Of a stretch of DNA of 64,000 nucleotides, positions 664-10,966 are shown in pieces (positions within the stretch are counted from its first letter, which is position 1; each line of letters starts with the position of its first letter). Source of the stretch: Thermodesulfobacteriota bacterium (GTDB taxonomy: Bacteria > Desulfobacterota > Desulfobacteria > Desulfobacterales > SURF-7). The stretch is taken from NCBI GenBank assembly GCA_049320885.1, contig JBMORA010000009.1:224001-288000 (forward strand), written 5' to 3'. The translations under genes and the position numbers were made by a program. The notes below the pieces were generated by a model. That model was not told the DNA's origin. It did not search any database and saw nothing but the letters and a program-made list of their open reading frames with translations.

Positions 664-826
664 ATGGCCATGGCGTTGGGCAAAATGCGGGTAGGTGGCG
701 GATTAAGCACCCTGGCACGAAAACTCAACACTCGTCAAATACTGCTGTGACATGGTATAAGATCCATGGGCAACCAATGAAAGCCCTGTCGATGTCCGCT
801 TTTCTCAATCATTGAGGTGCAGCGCC

Positions 827-1963
827 ATGACCTATTGTCTGATGGATGGAAACGAGGCCGTGGCCCGGGCCGCCATGGCGTCGGGTTGCCGGTTTTTTGC
901 AGGGTATCCCATCACGCCGGCCACGGGAATTCTGAACAGCATGCTGGCCCTGCTGCCGCCGGCAGGCGGCGTTTGCCTGCAGGGAGAGGATGAAATCGCC
1001 TCCATCGGCTACTGCCTGGGAGCCTCCATGGCCGGGATGAAGGTCATGACCGCCACCTCGGGACCCGGCATCAGTTTGTACAGCGAACAGATTTCATTCG
1101 CCATCGGCAGCGAGATTCCCATTGTCATCGTCGATGTGCAGCGCCTGGGGCCTTCCACCGGCTCCGCCACCCGCGGAGCCGACGGCGATATTCAGTTTCT
1201 GCGCTGGGGCAACAGCGGCGGTATGCCGGTGATCGTGCTGGCTCCGGTGGATGTCCAGGATTGCTATGAACTGACGGTTCAGGCCTTCAATCTGGCGGAA
1301 ATCCATCGCTGCCCGGTGTTCATCGCCTCCAACAAGGAAGTGGCCATGACCCGGGAAAGCCTCGATACGGATATTCTAAAAATCCCGGAGATTGTCCGGC
1401 GTCGGGCGCCCAAGGGGGAGAAACCTTATCTGCCCTTTACCGTGGAAACAGGCCGGTATGTCCCGGACTTCCGGCCCATGGGCGGCAATGTCATTGTCCG
1501 GCAGACTTCGTCCACTCACGGACCGGACGGGCACATCACAGCGGATCCGGCCGAAATCGCCGCCAACCGGAAGCGCCTGATGGAAAAACTGGCAGATGCA
1601 CCCGATTTCTTCTCGTTCGAGCAACAGCCGGACCGTCCGGAAACCGATCCGGTGGTGATCACCTACGGCGTCACGGCCAGGGCTGCCCGGGCGGCTGCGA
1701 AGGAATTGCGGGAAGAAGGCATCCATGTGGCGTTGTTGATTCTGAAAAGCCTTTGGCCGGTGCCTGGAACAACGATTGTGCGATATACCAGGAATGCGGC
1801 CGCAATTGCCGTTATCGAGATGAACCTCGGCCAGTATGTCCACGAGATCAAACGTCTGGTCCCCGACAGGCCGGTGCGGTTCTTCGGAAGAATGGACGGG
1901 GCACTGATCACCCCGCAGCAAATCAAGGAGGTCATCCGCCATGCCGGACAGTCTGCTGAATAA
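827..1963 (+). CDS. 2-oxoacid:ferredoxin oxidoreductase alpha subunit
   Basis: DGNEAVA, FFAGYPITP, EDEIAS, TATSGPG, QRLGPSTG motifs; ATG at 827 follows GAGGT SD. Confidence 0.9.
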   Translation: MTYCLMDGNEAVARAAMASGCRFFAGYPITPATGILNSMLALLPPAGGVCLQGEDEIASIGYCLGASMAGMKVMTATSGPGISLYSEQISFAIGSEIPIVIVDVQRLGPSTGSATRGADGDIQFLRWGNSGGMPVIVLAPVDVQDCYELTVQAFNLAEIHRCPVFIASNKEVAMTRESLDTDILKIPEIVRRRAPKGEKPYLPFTVETGRYVPDFRPMGGNVIVRQTSSTHGPDGHITADPAEIAANRKRLMEKLADAPDFFSFEQQPDRPETDPVVITYGVTARAARAAAKELREEGIHVALLILKSLWPVPGTTIVRYTRNAAAIAVIEMNLGQYVHEIKRLVPDRPVRFFGRMDGALITPQQIKEVIRHAGQSAE

Positions 1964-3239
1964 AAGTCGGCCGCCGGTTTTCTGCCCTGGATGCAGCCAT
2001 GAGAAGGTCGTCTACGCCTTGAATACGGCTTTCATGAACATGGGGCTGTCCGGCGAACGAATCGCCATCGTCAGCGATATCGGCTGTTCCGGCCTGTTCG
2101 ACACGTTTTTCAACACCCATGCCTTTCACGGGCTCCACGGTCGGGCCCTGACCTATGCCGCGGGCCTGAAGCTGGCCTGCCCGGAACTGACGGTGGTGGT
2201 GACCATGGGCGACGGAGGCCTGGGTATCGGCGGGGCCCATCTGCTGGCCGCCTGCCGCCGCAACCTGGATATCACCCTGCTGGTGCTGAACAACCTGAAT
2301 TACGGCATGACCGGCGGGCAATGCTCGCCGACGACGCCCCAGGACGCCCAGGTGGACTCCGGCTTTTTGAACCGATTGGAAACGCCCCTGGCGGTGACGG
2401 AACTGGCCTTCTGCGCCGGCGCCGGCTATGTCGCCGACTGTTCGAGTTATCAGAAAAATCTTCCGGAAGAGCTGGAACGGGCCATCCGCTTTGAAGGCTT
2501 TGCGGTGATGGATATCCGCGGGATCTGCCCGGGACGCTATACCCGCAACAACAAACGTTCCCCCCGCTCCATCGACCAGGAAATTGCCTGCCTGCCCAAA
2601 CAGCCCCCAATCCGCGCCAGGGCGGGAAGAAAAGAATACGGACGTCATTACCGGGAGCTCAGCGCAGCGCAGAAACCGGCCGCCCCGCCCATCGGGGTGG
2701 CGATCCGGCATCGCCCGCCTTCGACCATCCGGCAGGAAATCATCATCCTCGGCGATGCCGGCCAGCGGGTGCTAACGGCGGGTGAGATTCTCTGCCTGGC
2801 CGGCATGAGCGCCGGCCTCCGTGTAACCCAGAAAAACGATTACCACATTACGGTGCTGCGGGGGCCGTCCATCAGTGAGATCGTTCTGTCACCCGATGAT
2901 ATCGACTATACAGGGATTGTCCGGCCCGGGGTCGTTATCGCCATCGGCCAGGAAGGGGTGAATGCGCGCCGCAACCTGTTCGCCGGTCTGGATGCCGAGA
3001 GCCTTGTCGTGAAAGCACCGGGCATCCAGCTGCCGCCGCATCCGGGAACGGACATTCCAGCGGATTTTTCCAAACACGGCGTCAAACGCGAGGACTGGGC
3101 GCTCGCTTCACTGTGGGTCATGGCCCGGCTTGAAAAGGCAATTCATGCGGAAATGCTGCGCTCGGCGCTTTCGACACGTTTCCACGGCGAGGCTTTGGAA
3201 TCGGCGCTCGCATTGGGTGGACCGGATTTTTGGGCATAG
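1941..3239 (+). CDS. 2-oxoacid:ferredoxin oxidoreductase beta subunit fused to a C-terminal gamma-like domain
   Basis: FCPGC, DIGC, HGRA, ThDP motif GDG...NN..YGMTGGQCSPT; C-terminal half has EIIILGDAGQ...GEIL and SEIVLS gamma-type segments; overlaps alpha gene. Confidence 0.85.
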   Translation: MPDSLLNKSRPPVFCPGCSHEKVVYALNTAFMNMGLSGERIAIVSDIGCSGLFDTFFNTHAFHGLHGRALTYAAGLKLACPELTVVVTMGDGGLGIGGAHLLAACRRNLDITLLVLNNLNYGMTGGQCSPTTPQDAQVDSGFLNRLETPLAVTELAFCAGAGYVADCSSYQKNLPEELERAIRFEGFAVMDIRGICPGRYTRNNKRSPRSIDQEIACLPKQPPIRARAGRKEYGRHYRELSAAQKPAAPPIGVAIRHRPPSTIRQEIIILGDAGQRVLTAGEILCLAGMSAGLRVTQKNDYHITVLRGPSISEIVLSPDDIDYTGIVRPGVVIAIGQEGVNARRNLFAGLDAESLVVKAPGIQLPPHPGTDIPADFSKHGVKREDWALASLWVMARLEKAIHAEMLRSALSTRFHGEALESALALGGPDFWA

Positions 3240-3254
3240 ACCCGCAATTCCCGC

Positions 3255-4034
3255 TCAGGTGGTCAATGCCTGGATCCGCATCATGAAGTCGCCGATATCC
3301 CGGCCGTATTCCGGCGATCCCTCCACCGATAGATAGCCTTTGCGCACGGCCTCCACCATATTGACATCGTTCAGAATAATGGGCAGGGCGCCCTTGATCC
3401 CGTTGAATTTCATGTGCACGAACGGATGGCGCCGGGAATAGAAACCCCGTCCGGATTTTGATTTCCCTGCCTTTACGCGCAAATAGGCGGCGATATCCGG
3501 CTCGCCGTCCACGGACATCTGGTAAATCCGTTCGGGTTGCTTGGCGGTCCATTTGGCCATTTCCGGGTCGCCGCCCTTGTTATACTGGCTGAGGGCCGTG
3601 GTGATCATGTAAACGGTCAGCTTGACTTTCATGCGCTGCTTGAAGGGATCCTTGGGCCGCGCGTTGGGCATGAGGACCTTCAGGTAGAGGAGCAGGGCGA
3701 AGACCTTGATCAACAGACCGATTTTCCAAAGCCCCTTGATGACCGGGATCACCGGTTTGCCGGCCAACATGGCGTTCAGTTTGGCGACGCTGCCGAAGGC
3801 GAAGGTGATGTCCGGTTTGGGGCTTACTCCCTGGACGATTTCCAGTTCGCCGTTCTGAAACCGCAGAAAAGCGCCGACATCGCCGGCCGGGTCTTTGGCA
3901 ATGAACTGGACGTCGGCCGTAACCCCTTCAAATTTCCGTTTCATGGCCGGATCGTCGGACAGGACCACCTTCATCACCGGAAACAGGGCCCGCAGAAAGA
4001 TCCGGGCGCTCATCAACTCAGTCGGAGTAGCCAT
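3255..4034 (-). CDS. Hypothetical protein with two SCP2-like (sterol carrier/lipid-binding) repeats
   Basis: Start MATPTELM at 4034, abutting the upstream stop; two repeats of helix-DP-strand-strand-G..PD/H.I.F; C-terminal VEAVRKGYLSVEGS resembles the SCP2 'A...G.l.v.Gd' motif. Confidence 0.6.
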   Translation of the reverse strand: MATPTELMSARIFLRALFPVMKVVLSDDPAMKRKFEGVTADVQFIAKDPAGDVGAFLRFQNGELEIVQGVSPKPDITFAFGSVAKLNAMLAGKPVIPVIKGLWKIGLLIKVFALLLYLKVLMPNARPKDPFKQRMKVKLTVYMITTALSQYNKGGDPEMAKWTAKQPERIYQMSVDGEPDIAAYLRVKAGKSKSGRGFYSRRHPFVHMKFNGIKGALPIILNDVNMVEAVRKGYLSVEGSPEYGRDIGDFMMRIQALTT

Positions 4035-4035
4035 A

Positions 4036-5046
4036 TCACACCTCATCTTCCCAGTCGTCGTCTTCTTCAAAGTCCTTGCCCATGACTTCCCGCACCTTCT
4101 TGATGATGCCGTCGGTATCGAATTGATAATGGCTGTACAGATCCTCGGGATAGCCGACGATGCAGAAGCAATCGGGGATGCCCACCTTTTCGAAGGCGCA
4201 GCCTTTTCCAGAGGCGGCGATGATGTCGGCCACGGCGCTGCCGAGTCCGCCCTGGATGTTGTGATCCTCGAAGGTGATGATCCGCCGGGTTTCCCGGATG
4301 GCTTCCTGAATCGCCTGCTCGTCAATGGGTTTGATGGTGTGCATGTTGAGCACCCGGACGCTCAGGCCGTCATTCTGTTTCAGAAATTTGGCGGCTTCGA
4401 GCGCCTGCAGGACGGTGACCCCGCAGCAGATCAGGGTGATATCCGTGCCCGGATGCATCAGCACGGCCTTGCCGATCTGGAAACCATAGTCATCGGTTTC
4501 ATAGCAGCGCGGTTCGAATCCCCGTCCGATGCGGATATATACCGGGCCCGGGTAATCGACGCAGGCCTTGACCGCATTGGCGGTTTCCACCCCGTCGGCC
4601 GGCGCGATCACGGTCATGTTGGCCAAAGCCCGCATGACAGCCAGATCCTCGGTGCAGTGGTGGGTGGTTCCGGCGGCGCCGAAGGAAGTGCCGGCATGGG
4701 TGGCGATGATTTTTACATTCAGGTTTTGATAGCAGATGTCGGTACGCACCTGCTCGGCGGCTCGCAGGGTGGTGAACACCGCCATGGTGGAAACGAAGGG
4801 CAACAGGCCGGATTTGGCCAGCCCGGCGGCCATGCCGAAGAGATTCTGTTCGGCGATGCCGACATTGAAAAAGCGTTCCGGAAATTTGTCCGCAAATTTT
4901 CCGATTTTGGTGGATTTGGCCAGATCCGCGGACAGCCCCACGATTTTGGGATACTTCTCTCCCAGCACACAAAGAACCTCGCCATAGATGTCCGCCTGGG
5001 TCATGGTGTTGGCGTCATATACATTCCAGGTTAAACCTTCGGTCAT
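4036..5046 (-). CDS. Transketolase C-terminal subunit (split transketolase)
   Basis: LSADLAKST, FFNVGIAEQN, RAAEQVR, GTTHH..ED, GPVYIR, TIKPID, EDHNIQGGLGS. Confidence 0.92.
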   Translation of the reverse strand: MTEGLTWNVYDANTMTQADIYGEVLCVLGEKYPKIVGLSADLAKSTKIGKFADKFPERFFNVGIAEQNLFGMAAGLAKSGLLPFVSTMAVFTTLRAAEQVRTDICYQNLNVKIIATHAGTSFGAAGTTHHCTEDLAVMRALANMTVIAPADGVETANAVKACVDYPGPVYIRIGRGFEPRCYETDDYGFQIGKAVLMHPGTDITLICCGVTVLQALEAAKFLKQNDGLSVRVLNMHTIKPIDEQAIQEAIRETRRIITFEDHNIQGGLGSAVADIIAASGKGCAFEKVGIPDCFCIVGYPEDLYSHYQFDTDGIIKKVREVMGKDFEEDDDWEDEV

Positions 5047-5061
5047 ATACCCCCCTTTGTG

Positions 5062-5096
5062 GAATTACGAATTACGAATCGGGAATTACGAATGAT
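5062..5096. repeat. Heptamer tandem repeat GAATTAC x5 (degenerate), intergenic
   Basis: GAATTAC GAATTAC GAATCGG GAATTAC GAATGAT between the two transketolase genes. Confidence 0.8.
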
Positions 5097-5110
5097 GGAT
5101 GGAAGTCGTT

Positions 5111-5947
5111 TCAGCCGTACATGCGGTCCACGGACTGCTTGGCTTTCTCCCGGGTTTCCGTATCCAGGCCGCCGTAATGCCACTTGACTTCGTTTTCCAT
5201 GAACTCGACGCCTTTGCCTTTGACCGTGTGGGCGATGATCACCACCGGCGCGGAAGTTTCCGAAAGGGCGTAGTCGATGGCGCCGCAAAGTTCCCGGTAA
5301 TCGTGACCGTTGACTTCCTGGACGATGAAGCCGAAGGCTTTCCATTTATCGGCGAAGGGTTCCAGGCCCATGATCTGCTCGGTGGTACCGTCGATCATCA
5401 GTTTGTTGCGGTCCACGAAGGTCAGGAGATTGGTCAGTTTATAGTGACGGATGGCCATGGCCGCCTCCCAGTTGGTGCCCTCGTTGCACTCCCCGTCGCC
5501 GAGAATGCAATAGGTCCGCCAGTTTTTTTTCTGCACCCGGGCGCCCAGGGCCAGCCCGGCGGCGATGGGCAGACCGTGGCCCAGGGAGCCGGTGGAAACG
5601 TCGACTCCCTTGACCTTCAGACAATCCAGATGCATGCCGAAGGGGGATTTGAACTTGTTGAATTCCTGCAGCTGGTCGAAGTCGAAATAGCCCTTGCGGG
5701 CCAGAAGCGGTGCGTACCCGACCCCGCCGTGCCCCTTGCTGAGTACCATGCGGTCGCGGTCTTCCCAGGCCGGATTGTCGGGTTTGACGTTCAGATACTT
5801 GTAATAGAGTGTCACCAATATCTCCACCATGCTCATGGCGCCGCCGATATGGGCGCCGCCGGCCCAGTAAGTGATATCGATGATGTCTTTCCGCATCTGG
5901 CGTGCGACGGCCGATAGCCGGGTGATGTCCTGATCGGTGATGGGCAT
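5111..5947 (-). CDS. Transketolase N-terminal (ThDP-binding) subunit
   Basis: HIGGAMS, DRMVLSKGH, STGSLGHGL, GDGE...NWEA...DRN, HTVKGKG; start MPITDQ after GGAGG SD. Confidence 0.92.
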   Translation of the reverse strand: MPITDQDITRLSAVARQMRKDIIDITYWAGGAHIGGAMSMVEILVTLYYKYLNVKPDNPAWEDRDRMVLSKGHGGVGYAPLLARKGYFDFDQLQEFNKFKSPFGMHLDCLKVKGVDVSTGSLGHGLPIAAGLALGARVQKKNWRTYCILGDGECNEGTNWEAAMAIRHYKLTNLLTFVDRNKLMIDGTTEQIMGLEPFADKWKAFGFIVQEVNGHDYRELCGAIDYALSETSAPVVIIAHTVKGKGVEFMENEVKWHYGGLDTETREKAKQSVDRMYG

Positions 5948-6014
5948 ATGTTCCTCCTGTTGAACCGGTTGTTCGTGGGTTCGCGGCGCCGATCCGGAGC
6001 GCCGTGTTTTTCGG

Positions 6015-7259
6015 TTAATGGCCGTATTTTTTTTCAATCGCCTGAAAGGCTTCAGCCGCGATGGACAAGGTTTGCTCGATATCCGCGTCCGTATGGGCCG
6101 TGGACACGAACCAGTTGTGATGCGGGGTGAAATAGGCCCCGCGCTTGGTGCATTCCGCGCACCATTCCTGATGCAACATCAGGCTTTCGTCATCGGTGAT
6201 CCGCAGATACGGCATGGCCGGCGCGCCTGTTATTTTCAGGTTGTAGCCGTGCGCGGCGGCGGCGGCCACCAGACCGCTGCACAGCTTTTTGCCGATGTCG
6301 CGCATTTTTTCCGGGCCGTTGACGGACTGGAGTTCCTTCAGTGTCGCCAGGGCCGCGGCCATGGGCTGGGACTGGAACCAGTAACTGCCGGTGTAAAAAA
6401 CCCGGGCGGCGATACCCTTCAGCGACTCCCTGCCCATGAGGGCCGACAGGGGATAGCCGTTGGCGATGGCCTTGCAGAAACAGACCAGGTCGGGCTGAAA
6501 GCCGAAATAATGGTGGGAGCCTTGCATGTCCATCCGGAAACCGTGGCGGATGTCGTCGCTGATGAGAAGGATGCCGTTTTGACGGCATACGGTTTCCATC
6601 CGCGGCCAATACCCATCCACCGGCAGGGCGTTGTCCGCAAAGGCGGGCACGTGGTAGGGTGTGGCGATGAAGGCGGCGATTTCCCCGGGATGCTCCTGGA
6701 TGGCGCGTTCAAATGCCGCGGTGTCGTTCCAGGGAATCCGGATGATATTGGTCCAGTCTTCGTCAATCAGGCCGTGGTGGCCGGGGGCCTGCATCCAGGG
6801 GGCTACCCCGTGATAGCCGCCGTCGATCATGACGATTTTTTTTCGGGCGGTTGCGTCCCTGGCCACCATGATGGCGTAATTGGTCACGTCGCCGCCGTTT
6901 TTGGCGAAAAAAGCCCAGTCCATGCCACTCACCAGGTTGACCAGATGCTCGGCCAGCTCCACCATGACCGGAGAGGCGCCGGTGGTGCAGTTGCCCGCCG
7001 CTACCTGCCCGGCGGCGGCGGCGTCCACCACCGGATGGTTATATCCCAGCACCATGGGGCCGTAAGCGCACATGTAATCGATGAATTCGTTGCCGTCCAC
7101 GTCCCAGAAGCGGGCCCCGGAGGCTTTGGCGGTATAGAAAGGGTAATCCGTGGCCGGAATCAAGGGTGCCGGGCTGAAATGACCGTAAATGCCGCCGGGG
7201 ATCACCCTGGCGGCGCGTTTGAACCATTCCTGTGATTTGGGGTATTGATAGGTTTGCAT
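6015..7259 (-). CDS. Class III PLP aminotransferase (glutamate-1-semialdehyde aminomutase-like)
   Basis: VIPGG, WDVDGNEFIDY..AYGP..LGY, GGYHG, DDIRHGFR, PLP lysine in FCKAIANGYP; start may be 7259 or 7289. Confidence 0.88.
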   Translation of the reverse strand: MQTYQYPKSQEWFKRAARVIPGGIYGHFSPAPLIPATDYPFYTAKASGARFWDVDGNEFIDYMCAYGPMVLGYNHPVVDAAAAGQVAAGNCTTGASPVMVELAEHLVNLVSGMDWAFFAKNGGDVTNYAIMVARDATARKKIVMIDGGYHGVAPWMQAPGHHGLIDEDWTNIIRIPWNDTAAFERAIQEHPGEIAAFIATPYHVPAFADNALPVDGYWPRMETVCRQNGILLISDDIRHGFRMDMQGSHHYFGFQPDLVCFCKAIANGYPLSALMGRESLKGIAARVFYTGSYWFQSQPMAAALATLKELQSVNGPEKMRDIGKKLCSGLVAAAAAHGYNLKITGAPAMPYLRITDDESLMLHQEWCAECTKRGAYFTPHHNWFVSTAHTDADIEQTLSIAAEAFQAIEKKYGH

Positions 7260-7324
7260 ATCCAGGGTCCTTCCGGGAAAAATTTCCATGTCACTCGCTT
7301 GAAAGCCGAAATGGGCCTCCGATG

Positions 7325-8086
7325 TCAGGACAAATACAGGGGGATCCGGTCCAGCACCAGACTCATGGCGTCCAGCATGGGGGTCTGGCCTTTGATTACC
7401 ACATCGCCCGCGGCAATGGCGCTGAACGCATCCATCTTTCCGTTCAAAAAGGCGTTGGCCACCTGTACGTTCCGCATGAACATGCAGGCCATGGGCTTGT
7501 CGACATCCCCGCGTCCCGCCTCGATGGCACCGTTGTTAAAAAACACATGAACCGCCGGCCCTTCCGGCAGGATTTTCATCAAAATTGGGCCGTTGCGCAT
7601 GTGACCCACCGCCAGCCGGGCGATGGGATCCAGCTTCGCCAGCTCTGGCACGGCAAAGACGGCCGTGTTCATGGTCAGGCGGGTATTCATGGTCAGATAG
7701 AATTCATCCGCCAGCAATTTTTCCGTGGGCTTGAGAAAATGTTCCAGCCGGGCCGTGAGCGTGGCGAAATCTTTAGCGAGAAACGGCAGCTTGGTGAAGC
7801 CCTTCAGCGGAATGGGGTTCCCCTTGCCCGCCATCATGCGGTTCAGATGGGCCGGGGAGAGGAAGAACAGTTTTACCGTTGGAGCGGGAATGATTCCACG
7901 ACCCACGCGGCAGCCGCCGTTTTCAAAGACAATGTGCGCCTGCGGTCCGTTCCAGACGCTGAACTGGATGGATATGCGCCAACTGGCCGTAAAGGCTTTC
8001 ATTTCCGGATCCCAGGCAACCACATCCTCGAGGTTCTGCAGGACCGCGTATAAATTCAGGTTGGATTTGATCAATTCGGCCGTCAT
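7325..8086 (-). CDS. Hypothetical protein with two SCP2-like repeats
   Basis: Internal duplication (DP...GP.AH.vFeNG...GRG....P); C-terminal FLNGKMDAFSAIAAGDVVIKG is an SCP2 signature. Confidence 0.65.
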   Translation of the reverse strand: MTAELIKSNLNLYAVLQNLEDVVAWDPEMKAFTASWRISIQFSVWNGPQAHIVFENGGCRVGRGIIPAPTVKLFFLSPAHLNRMMAGKGNPIPLKGFTKLPFLAKDFATLTARLEHFLKPTEKLLADEFYLTMNTRLTMNTAVFAVPELAKLDPIARLAVGHMRNGPILMKILPEGPAVHVFFNNGAIEAGRGDVDKPMACMFMRNVQVANAFLNGKMDAFSAIAAGDVVIKGQTPMLDAMSLVLDRIPLYLS

Positions 8087-8100
8087 GTGAAAATGCCCCC

Positions 8101-8129
8101 TTGCAAAGCGGTTTCGCCCGGAGTATAGT
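8101..8129 (+). promoter_or_regulatory. Sigma70-like promoter for tetR-ald
   Basis: TTGCAA (8101-8106), 17 nt, TATAGT (8124-8129). Confidence 0.55.
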
Positions 8130-8138
8130 AGGCATGTG

Positions 8139-8156
8139 AGTGAGTGCTTGCTCACT
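8139..8156. promoter_or_regulatory. Putative TetR operator AGTGAG-N6-CTCACT
   Basis: Inverted repeat in the divergent intergenic region next to a TetR gene, overlapping both predicted transcription starts. Confidence 0.65.
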
Positions 8157-8184
8157 ATTACCCAGGCCGGGGTGAAAAAGTCAA
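8155..8184 (-). promoter_or_regulatory. Sigma70-like promoter for the SCP2/aminotransferase/transketolase operon
   Basis: Minus strand TTGACT (8184-8179), 18 nt, TAATAG (8160-8155). Confidence 0.45.
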
Positions 8185-8242
8185 GGGAAAAGATCCCCAA
8201 CCCGTTTCACCCCTGTATTTCGGTTACGTTGCGGATCTCAGG

Positions 8243-8947
8243 ATGAAAGATATGACCCGGGAAAAAACCCAGTTCCAGAACGGCGGCTACACCGTTAAAA
8301 AGCATTACACGGAAACATTTGAAAAGATCGCTGAGGATAAGCGCGCCACCATTTTGCGGGTCGCGGCCGCCGAATTCGCCGCCAACGGCTTCAGGACCGC
8401 CAATATCAATGTGATTGCCCGCAAGGCGGGCATCAGTATCGGCTCCATGTATAAATATTTTACGTCGAAGGAAAATCTGTTTCTGACGATCATCGATCAC
8501 GGCTACCAGGTGCTGGCCGACGTACTGGCGGAGGTGGATTTGAATGCCGGCGACATCTTCGATAAAATCGAGCGGCTGCTGCGGGCGGCCCAGCAATATT
8601 CCCGAAAATACCCGGAGCTGAACCAGATCTACGTGGATATCGCCTCCGAAGGGTTGTCGCATCTGTCGGTGATGCTTTCGCGAAAGATGGAGTCCATTTC
8701 CGCCGCGTTTTACCGGAGCATGCTTTCCCTGTCCAAGCAGAAGGGGCTGGTGGATGCGGCAGCGGATGATTTCGTCACCGCCTTTTGTCTGGATAACCTG
8801 ATCCTGATGCTGCAATACTCGTATACAACGGATTATTATCGGGAGCGGATGAAAATATTCGCCGGTGAGGATGCCCTGGAAGACGATGAACGGATCATCC
8901 GGGGCATGATGCGGTTCATCCGCGGTGCGCTGGCGCCCCGTTCCTGA
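8243..8947 (+). CDS. TetR/AcrR family transcriptional regulator
   Basis: HTH: ILRVAAAEFAANGFRTANINVIARKAGISIGSMYKYFTSKENLF; start uncertain (8243/8252). Confidence 0.92.
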   Translation: MKDMTREKTQFQNGGYTVKKHYTETFEKIAEDKRATILRVAAAEFAANGFRTANINVIARKAGISIGSMYKYFTSKENLFLTIIDHGYQVLADVLAEVDLNAGDIFDKIERLLRAAQQYSRKYPELNQIYVDIASEGLSHLSVMLSRKMESISAAFYRSMLSLSKQKGLVDAAADDFVTAFCLDNLILMLQYSYTTDYYRERMKIFAGEDALEDDERIIRGMMRFIRGALAPRS

Positions 8948-8996
8948 CTGGGCAGCGTCGTTCCCCATCGTAACGTCAATATAAGGAGGACTTGTC

Positions 8997-10103
8997 ATGA
9001 AAATCGGAGTGCCGAATGAGATCAAGATCAGGGAAAGACGTGTGGCGCTGACGCCTGCCGGTGCGTTTGCCCTCGCGGAAAAAGGCCATGAGGTGTTTGT
9101 GGAACGGAGTGCCGGCATCGGCTCCGGAATCATGGATGACGACTACAAACGCATGGGTGCGAGCATCCTGAATACCGCGGACGAAGTCTGGGGGGCGGCG
9201 GACATGATCATCAAGGTGAAGGAACCCATCGATCCGGAGTTCGACCGCATGAAACCCGGCCAGATATTGTTCACCTATCTCCATCTGGCGGCGGACGAGG
9301 CCCTGACCAGAAAACTGCTGGAACGCGACATCATCGGGATTGCCTATGAAACCATTCAGCTGAGTGACGGCAGTCTGCCCCTGTTGACCCCCATGAGCGA
9401 GGTCGCCGGCCGCCTGGCGGTGCAGGTGGGCTGTAATTGTCTGGAAACACGCAACGGCGGCAAGGGGCTGCTGTTGTCCGGCGTTCCGGGCGTGGGGCCT
9501 GCCAAGGTAACCATCCTGGGAGGCGGCATCGCCGGAGTCAACGCGGCTCAGCTGGCCATGGGCATGGGCGCCTATGTGACCATTCTGGATATCAACCTGA
9601 ACCGGCTGCGCCAGCTGGACCATTTGTTTCATTCCCATGTGGTCACCCTCATGTCCAATCCCACCAACATCGAGGATTGCATCGCTCAATCCGATTTGGT
9701 GATCGGCACGGTGTTGATTCCAGGCGCCCGGGCTCCCAAGCTGATAAAAAGGAGCTATCTGCAGAAGATGGAACCGGGTTCGGCCCTGGTGGATGTGGCC
9801 ATCGATCAGGGCGGCTGCGCCGAAACCAGCCGGCCCACCACCCACGATGACCCGATGTTCATTGTCGACAGCATCGTGCATTACTGCGTAACCAACATGC
9901 CCGGCCAGGTGCCCCGCACCTCCACCTTCGCCCTGACCAACGCCACCCTGCCCTATGCGTTGGCACTGGCCAATAAGGGGCTCAAAAAAGCCCTGCATTC
10001 CGACCCGGCCCTGGCCAAGGGACTGAACGTCTACAGGGGCAAGCTCACCCGGAAGGAAGTGTCGGAGGCGGTGAATATCCCGTTTGAGGAAGTAAAATTG
10101 TAA
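8997..10103 (+). CDS. ald: Alanine dehydrogenase
   Basis: [61 protein letters not shown]. Confidence 0.96.
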
Positions 10104-10966
10104 TGGTGCGAAGCGAAAAGCCTAAAGCGGAAAGCAGCCCGGATGAAGAGATTGCTCGAATGGAACAGGCCGGTTTCAATCCGGGAAAGCATGGCTTCGA
10201 TCAGATACCGATTCTTGCCGTCGGCCGCGGATGGATGGTGGCGGATAAACCCGCGGGTATGAGCATTCATAACGCGCCGGGAGAAGACCTTTGTTCGCTG
10301 GTTTCGGAAAAGGTTCGACAGCGGCCGGATATCGGCGAGCTGTTTGGCATCGACCCGCCGAACACAGGCTTCGGAGCGGATATCCATCCGGTTCACCGCC
10401 TGGACAGGGAAACCAGCGGTGTGGTGCTGCTTGCCGCTGATCGGGAGATTTTTCGTTTTTTTTCAAAACAGTTTACTAGTCGAACCGTGATAAAAACATA
10501 CGTTGCACTGGTGCACGGCCGTCTGGAGATGCCCGGAGGGGCGGATTCATGGGGAATTTGGGAATGGCCCCTTTCAAAAACAGCCGCGGGTCGCAGCAGG
10601 CCCCAGGGGGTCGGCCGCCGCCACCCCAGCAGTACCAGATATCGCGTTCTTGGCCACAGCGAGCATTATACCATGGTGTCACTGGAACTGCTCACCGGGC
10701 GCACCCACCAGATCCGGCGGCATGCAAAACTAGCAGGCCACCCGGTTGTCGGGGATGTGCGCTACGGCTCGGACCGGGCGGTGAATTTTCTCCGAAAGCA
10801 GCGAGGATTCGACCGGCTGGCCCTGCATGCCCGGGCGCTTTCCATACAGCTTCCGGGCAAAGATGATCAAACCACCATAGAGACAAGGACAATTCCGAAT
10901 CAGATGCGGATATTATTTGAAGAAGATTGGATTGGAAGGGAAGAGGCAACGAAGGAACAGCAGTAG
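10103..10966 (+). CDS. RluA family pseudouridine synthase
   Basis: DKPAG, catalytic [32 protein letters not shown]. Confidence 0.9.

Follow-up and report, generated by a model that had tools for sequence, protein, structure and literature searches.

The locus and its conservation

The window, i.e., the whole 64,000-nt stretch of DNA that was analysed, holds five minus-strand genes that diverge from tetR and ald with one operator between them, and all seven genes of the preliminary description were confirmed. The parts are listed by position.

3255-4034, minus strand: SCP2-B, tandem SCP2-fold protein, 259 aa (SCP2 fold by model and hhalign)
4036-5046, minus strand: TK-C, C-terminal subunit of a split transketolase, 336 aa (best PDB match 6YAJ)
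5111-5947, minus strand: TK-N, N-terminal (ThDP pyrophosphate) subunit of the split transketolase, 278 aa (PF00456)
6015-7259, minus strand: FumI-like class III (PLP) aminotransferase, 414 aa, catalytic Lys263 (best PDB match 6HBS)
7325-8086, minus strand: SCP2-A, tandem SCP2-fold protein, 253 aa (PF02036, E 2.2e-07)
8101-8129, plus strand: predicted sigma-70-like promoter of tetR-ald (9/12 consensus matches)
8135-8156, strand not given: palindromic TetR-type operator, core 18-mer at 8137-8154, consensus TGAGYRAGYRCTYRCTCA
8252-8947, plus strand: tetR, gene of a TetR-family regulator (PF00440)
8997-10103, plus strand: ald, alanine dehydrogenase gene (TIGR00518)

From SCP2-A to SCP2-B the intergenic gaps of the operon are 65, 67, 64, and 1 nt, SCP2-B starting 1 nt past the stop of TK-C. 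A check of Pfam domains agreed with the earlier statement that kinase, isomerase and sugar transporter are absent from the cluster. The 2-oxoacid:ferredoxin oxidoreductase genes at 812-3239 and the pseudouridine synthase gene at 10103-10966 were rejected as cassette members, as they do not recur in related loci.

The SCP2, aminotransferase and transketolase genes had been treated as one set, and this grouping holds across genomes: the order SCP2, aminotransferase, TK-N, TK-C, SCP2 is kept in 44 of the 51 genome loci that could be scored, representing four or more phyla, and the SCP2 genes are co-conserved with the other two, the absence of which would have counted against reading them as one pathway. 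These counts were filtered, the raw ones being inflated by cross-matches between SCP2-A and SCP2-B and by E1-beta matches. The arrangement is not due to chance: in all loci that extend 1.3 kb or more upstream (71/71) the aminotransferase is preceded by SCP2-A, and 48/58 loci reaching 4 kb or further downstream have TK-N, TK-C, and SCP2-B next in order. In a metagenome scan with a sister TK-C as query, SCP2-B came directly after TK-C in 64/67 scorable loci. SCP2-A thus travels with the aminotransferase as its partner, and SCP2-B with the transketolase. Cultured carriers are Desulfosarcina widdelii, Desulfatibacillum alkenivorans and two Desulfoluna species, and the scan also found the cassette in host-associated bacteria.

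The full TK-N/TK-C/SCP2-B trio is missing beside the aminotransferase in 10/58 loci. Where the cassette is split, relocated transketolase genes carry their own operator (genomes G453, G455, and G456) and in G453 keep SCP2-B. Some more distant aminotransferases adjoin other ThDP enzymes, and one is fused to SCP2. In 28/80 loci a tetR homologue of 45% identity or more is found no further than 10 kb away. Downstream of the cassette a gene for a class 3, fatty-aldehyde-type aldehyde dehydrogenase (ALDH; same strand) was found in 7/80 metagenome loci and an aldehyde:ferredoxin oxidoreductase (AFOR) gene likewise in 7/80; phosphoesterase genes also occur with the regulon or the cassette. A gene for a VOC protein follows SCP2-B in 16 loci and has no match in this genome; that it might epimerise C3 is a guess, as its PDB matches are weak only (E 3.5e-4). 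A glycyl radical enzyme that adjoins ald in seven Desulfobacterales loci was excluded, its gene here being on another contig and without the operator.

The proteins of the cassette

The best PDB match of the aminotransferase is FumI (6HBS; 335 bits, E 4.8e-99, about 41% identity by hand count from the alignment), the fum cluster of which may include a ThDP-enzyme gene (fumK, given no weight here); the best HemL match reaches 167 bits. A class III PLP fold, the catalytic Lys and FumI-like motifs are all present, and among 125 homologues Lys263 is kept in 124 and Asp236, Arg238, Trp155, and His27 in every one. The protein is not a HemL, as had been considered: it scores 211 against a cut-off of 527.3 (TIGR00713) and 228 against 398 (NF000818), it has Y-G-H, D-D-I-R, and T-G-S-Y-W where HemL has N-S-P-V-R, D-E-V-M, and A-G-T-L, and the genome encodes its own HemL, which is 30% identical to it and carries the HemL motif forms. 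Its identity to FumI lies below the 61-74% spanned by the characterised HFB1 transaminases in the available part of PMC9858248 and does not by itself place it among them. Relatives at about 40% identity occur in unrelated contexts, which counts against a sphingoid-base reading, and no monophyly is claimed for the cassette-linked aminotransferases since their set has a support of 0.12 in the tree. As far as PMC3136697 was available, FumI converts hydrolysed fumonisin B1 and pyruvate to the 2-ketone and alanine and does not use 2-oxoglutarate, and no sphinganine assay is reported for it there.

This use of pyruvate, not 2-oxoglutarate, would explain the presence of ald. The identity of its product is clear (TIGR00518, 532.9 bits against a cut-off of 391.85), but the proposal that Ald is a member of the pathway stands only in part, as ald adjoins the cassette in only 13/80 loci (16 raw matches less three, of about 30% identity and transhydrogenase-like). 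In G412, G415, and G473 it is relocated yet still behind the operator. Ald is best regarded as an accessory enzyme that would regenerate pyruvate.

The best PDB matches of the transketolase halves are 6YAK for TK-N (E 4.1e-76) and 6YAJ for TK-C (E 2e-81). The ThDP motif and the catalytic His cluster (H26, H66, H100, H261, and H473) are kept in 60/60 and 55/55 sequences, and His33, His73, His106, and His257 of TK-N are invariant in 60/60. The numbers H26, H100, H261, and H473 follow PMC11387542. The equivalent of D469, which in canonical transketolases binds the 2-OH of the acceptor, is Ala125 in the operon TK-C; it is never Asp and always Ala or Gly in the two sets of 55 and 79 sequences. Substitutions of D469 improve E. 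coli transketolase on non-hydroxylated aldehydes (PMC3657141, available text). The loss is not special to the operon enzyme, Asp being found in only 75/150 outgroup TK-C representatives. Loss of the phosphate-binding residues had been predicted and holds for one of the four: R358 (here Ala18) is kept in 9/55 and 10/79 sequences, while the equivalents of S385, H461, and R520 remain in 55/55 and 79/79, so that phosphorylated substrates are still possible. In a tree with 150 unnamed TK-C representatives the operon transketolase forms its own clade, and the genome encodes a separate housekeeping transketolase, DXS and HemL. The clustering with housekeeping transketolases that would have counted against the earlier interpretation was not seen in that tree.

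Natural D-erythro bases are expected, by CIP reasoning, to give a (3R)-ketodiol; the configuration of the FumI substrate at C3 is presumably the opposite. The C3 stereochemistry, a difficulty that the earlier interpretation overlooked, speaks against the proposed cleavage, as characterised transketolases prefer 3S. Within the available portions of the two papers, S-selectivity is described for the E. coli enzyme (PMC3657141) and for the split transketolases tested (PMC13663882).

In each SCP2 protein Pfam detects one SCP2 domain only, one of the two just below cut-off. Nonetheless, the tandem SCP2 repeats described earlier are backed by other methods: the AlphaFold models (pLDDT 95.3 for SCP2-A and 94.1 for SCP2-B) show two repeats in each, with target-normalised TM scores of up to 0.67 per predicted domain, the top Foldseek matches of both models are SCP2 proteins and the SCP2 domains of alkylsulfatases, and hhalign aligns the two proteins as full-length paralogues (99.6%, 24% identity). 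A predicted complex of TK-N, TK-C, and SCP2-B scored 0.31 against a mark of 0.32 and is counted neither for nor against an interaction.

The predicted operator and its putative regulon

An operator matrix trained on 43 sites from the operons of other genomes gives the site at 8135-8156, immediately 3' of the predicted tetR promoter (1 sigma-70-like promoter found vs. 0.1 expected), a score of 27.1; the next best in the window, its own overlapping register aside, is 3.0. TetR would bind at this predicted operator and is presumed to be the repressor of the regulon. In the 5.6-Mb genome 6/9318 tiles of 600 nt score at least 17, and the top three sites belong to the operon and to two genes elsewhere.

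G000:C65, strand not given: FadL-type porin gene (top operator site, 32.8)
G000:C9:71153-73231, outside the window, strand not given: neutral ceramidase gene (PF04734, 556 bits; operator site 29.8)

The site in C24 (20.6) was rejected, as it lies within a coding region, and those in C22 as part of a FadR-type beta-oxidation regulon; the beta-oxidation genes of this genome have a distinct FadR-type box scoring 18-19 and their own YsiA-type TetR. The ALDH3 and AFOR genes of this genome are without the operator.

The ceramidase matches CerN, which we take to belong to the SphR regulon of P. aeruginosa, over its full length (E 6.7e-160). It scores above cut-off for PF04734 and PF17048, carries a signal peptide, and its metal and catalytic motifs, the roles of which we assume, align. 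The ceramidase query matched only 13/80 cassette genomes; seven of these other 13 genomes have the operator upstream of the gene, three with only 54-59% protein identity and four being close kin, and six lack it there. The operator is also found before a divergent ceramidase-like gene in G418, and in the complete genome G425 the pattern has two sites only, at the operon and at the ceramidase.

In 9/10 genomes the operator precedes a gene which we term 'SPT-like' because its product does not reach the NCBIfam cut-off (best model NF047600, 499-515 bits against 640) although an SPT is its best PDB match (3A2B, E 1.4e-121). The tandem sites there partly resemble a FadR-type box and may therefore be bound by a different regulator. 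No close SPT-like match was found in 70/80 cassette genomes, nor in this genome, where the best reaches only 36% and an S1P lyase is absent as well. S1P-lyase-like proteins are encoded in 34/80 cassette genomes, which counts against the sphingoid-base reading; their genes were rejected as regulon members, the operator being found before 0/19 scorable ones. NAD(P) transhydrogenase genes lie behind the operator in nine genomes.

A candidate route for sphingoid bases, its alternatives and known systems

Sphingoid bases are indicated as the substrate because FumI is the closest solved relative of the aminotransferase and a ceramidase lies under the same operator, and the operon probably serves to break down free sphingoid bases, first by transamination and then by ThDP-dependent cleavage to a fatty aldehyde and a C2 unit. 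The earlier sphingoid-base interpretation is thereby supported on genomic grounds. From the gene identities, synteny, active-site residues and common operator that were observed, we infer substrates, direction, C2 acceptor, SCP2 roles and TetR ligand as follows. The TetR regulon would scavenge ceramide and free sphingoid bases without kinase or lyase. The secreted neutral ceramidase would release a long-chain base and a fatty acid from ceramide, and the FadL-type porin would aid import. SCP2-A may hold the acyl chain while the aminotransferase transfers the 2-amino group of the base onto pyruvate, so that alanine and a 1,3-dihydroxy-2-ketone result, and Ald would turn alanine into pyruvate, ammonia and NADH, drawing the transamination forward. 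With SCP2-B, the split transketolase would cleave between C2 and C3 and release the long-chain aldehyde (hexadecanal from sphinganine), the C2 unit staying on ThDP and most likely being handed to an aldose phosphate. A class 3 ALDH or an AFOR could then oxidise the aldehyde for beta-oxidation. We found no published description of such a transamination-then-ThDP route to sphingoid-base breakdown.

Since the transaminase, transketolase and Ald reactions are all reversible, the same genes could in principle make amino lipids without SPT, as had also been suggested, the transketolase joining a fatty aldehyde to C2 donated by fructose-6-P or xylulose-5-P and alanine from Ald serving the aminotransferase as amino donor. 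The missing close SPT-like match in this genome and in 70/80 cassette genomes, the transhydrogenase genes behind the operator and the operator shared with the SPT-like gene would suit this. The reverse direction is nevertheless not favoured, and we hold it very unlikely, because a signal-peptide ceramidase, an import porin and Ald are co-regulated with the operon and the recurring neighbours are aldehyde-oxidising genes, not acyl-CoA reductases; moreover, no ceramide synthase, glycosyltransferase or export gene recurs among the annotated clusters, and genomes with an SPT-like gene would have no need of the route. The Sga route sets no precedent for SPT-independent synthesis either, since it retains an SPT-type enzyme (PMC12134224, available text). 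Unlikely, too, is the same chemistry on another or a broader range of long-chain 2-amino-3-ols, for example capnine from sulfonolipids, fungal metabolites analogous to sphinganine, or bases in 1-deoxy or phosphorylated form, with the 'ceramidase' freeing the substrate from an N-acyl derivative. The invariant His residues that contact the donor hydroxyls (equivalents of H100, H261, and H473) and the operator in common with the SPT-like gene (9/10 genomes) argue against it, and the enzyme expected for a 1-deoxy substrate would be an E1 of the acetoin-dehydrogenase type, as found in some loci without the transketolase; this alternative draws on the C1 methyl of the known FumI substrate (PMC3136697, in the portion available), three retained phosphate-site residues out of four, the accompanying phosphoesterase genes and the 67/80 genomes in which our query found no canonical ceramidase.

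That the cassette only detoxifies, the aminotransferase disarming antimicrobial bases while the transketolase acts on an unrelated ketose and a general lipid regulator works through the box, is highly improbable. Relocated transketolase genes retain SCP2-B (G453) and their own operator, the transketolase clade, which without exception lacks Asp at the D469 equivalent, is kept in the cassette across phyla, and beta-oxidation in this genome has a different box and a separate TetR, against which stand a resemblance of the operator to that FadR-type box (18-19), the 10/58 loci with SCP2-A and aminotransferase beside no full trio, and the inhibition of bacteria by sphingoid bases, which P. aeruginosa detoxifies (PMC11398299, available text). 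A steroid route, in which a DesAB-like desmolase would act on an amino-steroid or corticosteroid side chain, can point to the proposed cleavage of a dihydroxyacetone side chain by the split transketolase DesAB (PMC3735941, as far as available) and to the binding of sterols by SCP2 folds. We consider it barely credible, as the operon shares its regulon with ceramidase, SPT-like and fatty-aldehyde enzymes, and neither a hydroxysteroid dehydrogenase nor a DesD-type symporter is among the recurring neighbours.

Sphingoid bases occur in abundance, inhibit microbes and serve as signals in hosts. For their disposal by anaerobic bacteria the cassette offers a concrete candidate route. It is conceivable, although we lean slightly against it, that anaerobes consume free sphingoid bases mainly by this route, which would have gone unrecognised until now, with a naturally R-tolerant long-chain transketolase fed by dedicated SCP2 proteins, a TetR that senses sphingoid bases and, in some spirochaetes, weighs their breakdown against synthesis by SPT, and a role in the gut. 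If so, its users would span sediment sulfate reducers, digester spirochaetes, host-associated Actinomycetaceae and gut Bacillota, and gut carriers would shape dietary and host sphingolipid levels. The cassette also suggests a natural role for the FumI family, used for mycotoxin detoxification, and a transketolase natively handling C16 aldehydes, possibly R-selective, would be valuable for biocatalysis.

The S1P lyase route spends ATP, cuts by a PLP-dependent retro-aldol and yields phosphoethanolamine, and a class 3 ALDH acts after the fatty aldehyde. That kinase/lyase route (PDB 3MAD, 4Q6R) and the proposed one would share the net C2-C3 cut to a fatty aldehyde, whereas here nitrogen would be removed first and ThDP would make the cut. 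The split transketolase of Carboxydothermus hydrogenoformans (PDB 6YAK/6YAJ) is the closest solved structure of both halves, with the ThDP motif and His cluster conserved, but its residues equivalent to R358 and D469 are still Arg and Asp, as against Ala in both places in the operon enzyme. DesAB of Clostridium scindens, likened here by description, is likewise an extra split transketolase of an anaerobe, is substrate-inducible, and is proposed to cut a C2 ketol unit from a hydrophobic molecule and to feed it to the pentose phosphate pathway (PMC3735941, available part); here, however, the aminotransferase would create the ketol, and the partners 20-HSDH and DesD symporter are absent from the 64-kb window and from the recurring neighbours of the cassette. 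In P. aeruginosa the SphR/CerN/SphBCD system also ties a neutral ceramidase to sphingoid-base metabolism in one regulon, but it works by periplasmic oxidation with cytochrome c and a predicted aldolase, under an activator, to a product given as unknown in the text available (PMC11398299), and has no homology to the cassette enzymes except for the ceramidase. FumI of Sphingopyxis sp. MTA144 (PDB 6HBS) differs in that its known substrate carries a methyl at C1, against a hydroxyl in the substrate proposed here; the hosts of the cassette are anaerobic and the partners are two SCP2 proteins and a split transketolase, with no fumonisin esterase. It is nevertheless the closest solved relative, with common motifs around the PLP site, and its pyruvate-to-alanine deamination of a long-chain 2-amino-3-ol, as described in the portion of PMC3136697 available, fits the presence of ald.

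Gene row, conservation and distribution

The seven-gene layout given in the preliminary description is borne out, with all genes present as described. Five minus-strand genes separated by small gaps encode SCP2-A, the aminotransferase, the transketolase (TK) halves TK-N and TK-C, and SCP2-B, and tetR and ald diverge from them. SCP2-A and SCP2-B are full-length paralogues with two SCP2 repeats each in models. The closest relatives are Desulfobacterales genomes (aminotransferase identity 89%) and the host is therefore probably a sulfate reducer of this order. As the host genome (G000, completeness 98%) has separate TK, DXS and HemL genes, named from alignment patterns, the operon enzymes are extras. 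At 812-3239 of the window, genes for a 2-oxoacid:ferredoxin oxidoreductase (alpha and fused beta-gamma) are convergent with the operon and not co-conserved.

Species genomes (185,579) were scanned, and the best 80 of 219 relatives, from Desulfobacterota, Spirochaetota, Hydrogenedentota, Myxococcota and other phyla, were kept for locus counts. Among these best 80, SCP2-A was upstream of the aminotransferase at all loci with sufficient upstream DNA (71/71), the TK pair and SCP2-B were downstream in 48/58, and the full five-gene order was found in 44/51; the set is co-conserved. In the same 80, tetR was nearby in 28 and ald in 13. A second, independent scan with a sister TK-C as query gave 80 metagenome loci, including L349-L354, one of them from an assembly named as human gut; among loci that could be scored, 45 of 48 had the aminotransferase and 64 of 67 had an SCP2 gene immediately 3' of TK-C. 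Homologues are named from Mobiluncus, Varibaculum, Arcanobacterium, Mobilicoccus and Vallitalea among others, and Atlas clusters are mostly Bacillota. The cassette is uncommon within its own phylum, where 69/401 genomes match at E <= 1e-60, about half of them HemL-like, and only 2 of 40 loci fetched from those matches have the full row. In gut-type loci SCP2-B is followed by a calcineurin-like phosphoesterase and a GDPD (L349:10240-12381), which possibly remove sphingomyelin head groups.

The aminotransferase and the split transketolase

The best solved match of the aminotransferase is FumI (6HBS; E 4.8e-99, 335 bits; about 41% identity counted from the alignment), followed by HemL at 167 bits. 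It is not a true HemL, in line with the preliminary description, as it falls below HemL cut-offs and carries FumI-like motifs; these are near-invariant across 125 homologues, and the HemL of G000 carries the HemL forms. FumI is described as converting hydrolysed fumonisin B1 (HFB1) to the 2-ketone, with pyruvate preferred and 2-oxoglutarate not used (PMC3136697), and this preference would explain ald in the cassette. The comparison with FumI has two limits: proven HFB1 transaminases are reported to be 61-74% identical to reference enzymes (PMC9858248), and, of fifteen plasmid relatives found at about 40% identity, the four examined all have unrelated contexts. At about 50% identity, some aminotransferases still have SCP2-A beside them but an E1-type ThDP enzyme in the vicinity, two at 42% come after an acetolactate-synthase-type ThDP enzyme, one adjoins an S1P-lyase homologue, and many others are without such a neighbour.

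Two other arrangements were seen. At L122:4654-7293, L144 and L118, SCP2 fused to an E1-alpha/beta ThDP enzyme is followed by enoyl-CoA hydratase, SCP2-A and the aminotransferase, possibly a variant for 1-deoxy amino-alcohols. On a Novosphingobium capsulatum plasmid (L271:7083-10227) a FumI-like aminotransferase has a class II aldolase on one side and a carbohydrate kinase on the other, and TetR, a TonB receptor and ALDH are also present; this may be a kinase/aldolase alternative.

Both TK halves are closest to the split TK of C. hydrogenoformans. In a TK-C tree with a backdrop of 150 representatives, the 55 cassette-linked sequences and six unnamed representatives form a clade of 61 (FastTree support 1.0). 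The catalytic His cluster is invariant. The supposed loss of phosphate-binding residues (roles from PMC11387542) held only in part: the counterpart of R358 is mostly lost, with Arg in 9/55 and 10/79 sequences, but those of S385, H461 and R520 are retained in all (55/55 and 79/79). At the position corresponding to D469 every sequence has Ala or Gly (55/55 and 79/79), and in E. coli TK substitutions of D469 are reported to increase activity on propanal, with D469Y reversing selectivity (PMC3657141). This pattern would fit a donor that releases an aldehyde lacking a 2-OH, with a sugar phosphate still serving as acceptor. Since the outgroup has Asp at this position in only 75/150, loss of D469 marks specialisation and not this particular substrate.

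The shared operator and its targets

The main evidence for the sphingoid-base reading is the shared operator and regulon. The single operator claimed earlier was recovered as one palindromic site. A matrix was made from 43 operon-upstream sites, picked by a hand-written consensus from 75 loci of other genomes; three G000 sites score above 25, and only 6/9318 tiles reach 17.

Sites in G000 scoring above 25 with the operator matrix
Score 32.8 (top): upstream of a FadL-type porin and a 5'-nucleotidase-like lipoprotein (G000:C65:32-3457, L165)
Score 29.8 (second): upstream of a neutral ceramidase that has a signal peptide and lies 150 kb outside the window
Score 27.1 (third): 8135-8156, between the minus-strand operon and plus-strand tetR

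The FadL/lipoprotein unit, which in relatives gains an MFS transporter and a 251-aa secreted protein, is possibly a module for head-group removal and import. Another TetR regulon, of the FadR/YsiA type, whose box is related to this one yet distinct (G000:C22:39352-46058, L167), contains acyl-CoA dehydrogenase, Fe-S oxidoreductase and ETF genes.

The ceramidase query matched in 13/80 cassette genomes versus 3/400 phylum genomes, sets that differ in taxa. An operator was within 600 nt of the ceramidase in 7/13 (four close kin, three at 54-59% identity); of the six genomes without it, three also lack the operon operator. Pattern searches covered 44 genomes and 51 fetched regions. Among the matches listed, the operator precedes a divergent ceramidase-like gene in G418, an ald that has been relocated in G412, G415 and G473, FadL units (G401, G407, G409, G448) and phosphofructokinase (G454), and accompanies relocated TK genes (G453, with SCP2-B included and AFOR divergent, G455, G456). 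NAD(P) transhydrogenase is also behind it in at least nine genomes, confirmed by Pfam in three and judged from sequence similarity in six, and so are several secreted proteins without annotation. As a control, no site was found within 1.5 kb of S1P-lyase-like genes (0/19 scorable; 20 of 41 matches fetched).

Secreted, Pfam-less spirochaete proteins encoded immediately 3' of a strong operator (L244, L245, L247, 330 aa; L250, L254, L257, 484-698 aa; L237, L241) are candidate new ceramidases or uptake proteins. SPT-like genes occur in 10/80 genomes, nine with tandem sites 22 nt apart and the tenth with only 125 nt of upstream sequence; those in Spirochaetota MAGs with tandem operator-like sites (L241, L249, L258, L259) suggest unrecognised sphingolipid producers. 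S1P-lyase-like genes (L357-L365), at several spirochaete loci directly 3' of a membrane-protein gene, are not under the operator.

A proposed route and its relation to known systems

The most economical reading, and one we consider rather likely, is a three-step breakdown, in which ceramide would be hydrolysed to the free base, the base transaminated to a 2-keto-1,3-diol with formation of alanine, and the ketodiol cleaved by the ThDP enzyme to a fatty aldehyde and a C2 unit. It is also possible that the cassette works in reverse, in synthesis, although this fits the ceramidase, the porin and the aldehyde oxidases poorly. A class 3 ALDH that matches human fatty aldehyde dehydrogenase at E 1.8e-101 lies downstream on the same strand in 7 of the 80 metagenome loci (53 of these loci have 4 kb or more of downstream DNA), an AFOR likewise in 7, and a flavin ene-reductase, which would suit 2-hexadecenal derived from sphingosine, in 3. 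An unassigned glycyl radical enzyme with its activase, below every NCBIfam cut-off, lies beside ald in 7 Desulfobacterales loci (L034:3533-6839 and kin); in G000 it is on another contig (G000:C46:53130-55466).

The chief difficulty for the breakdown route is stereochemistry at C3. D-erythro bases are expected to give a 3R ketodiol. The split TKs tested so far are reported to be S-selective (PMC13663882). A VOC protein, a candidate C3 epimerase, is downstream in 11/80 metagenome loci and 5 genome loci, with no match in G000.

Searches of the open-access literature gave no account of the route. Its component enzymes belong to known kinds; DesAB provides a precedent for specialised catabolic split TKs (PMC3735941), and the nearest bacterial system, as described in PMC11398299, is SphBCD.
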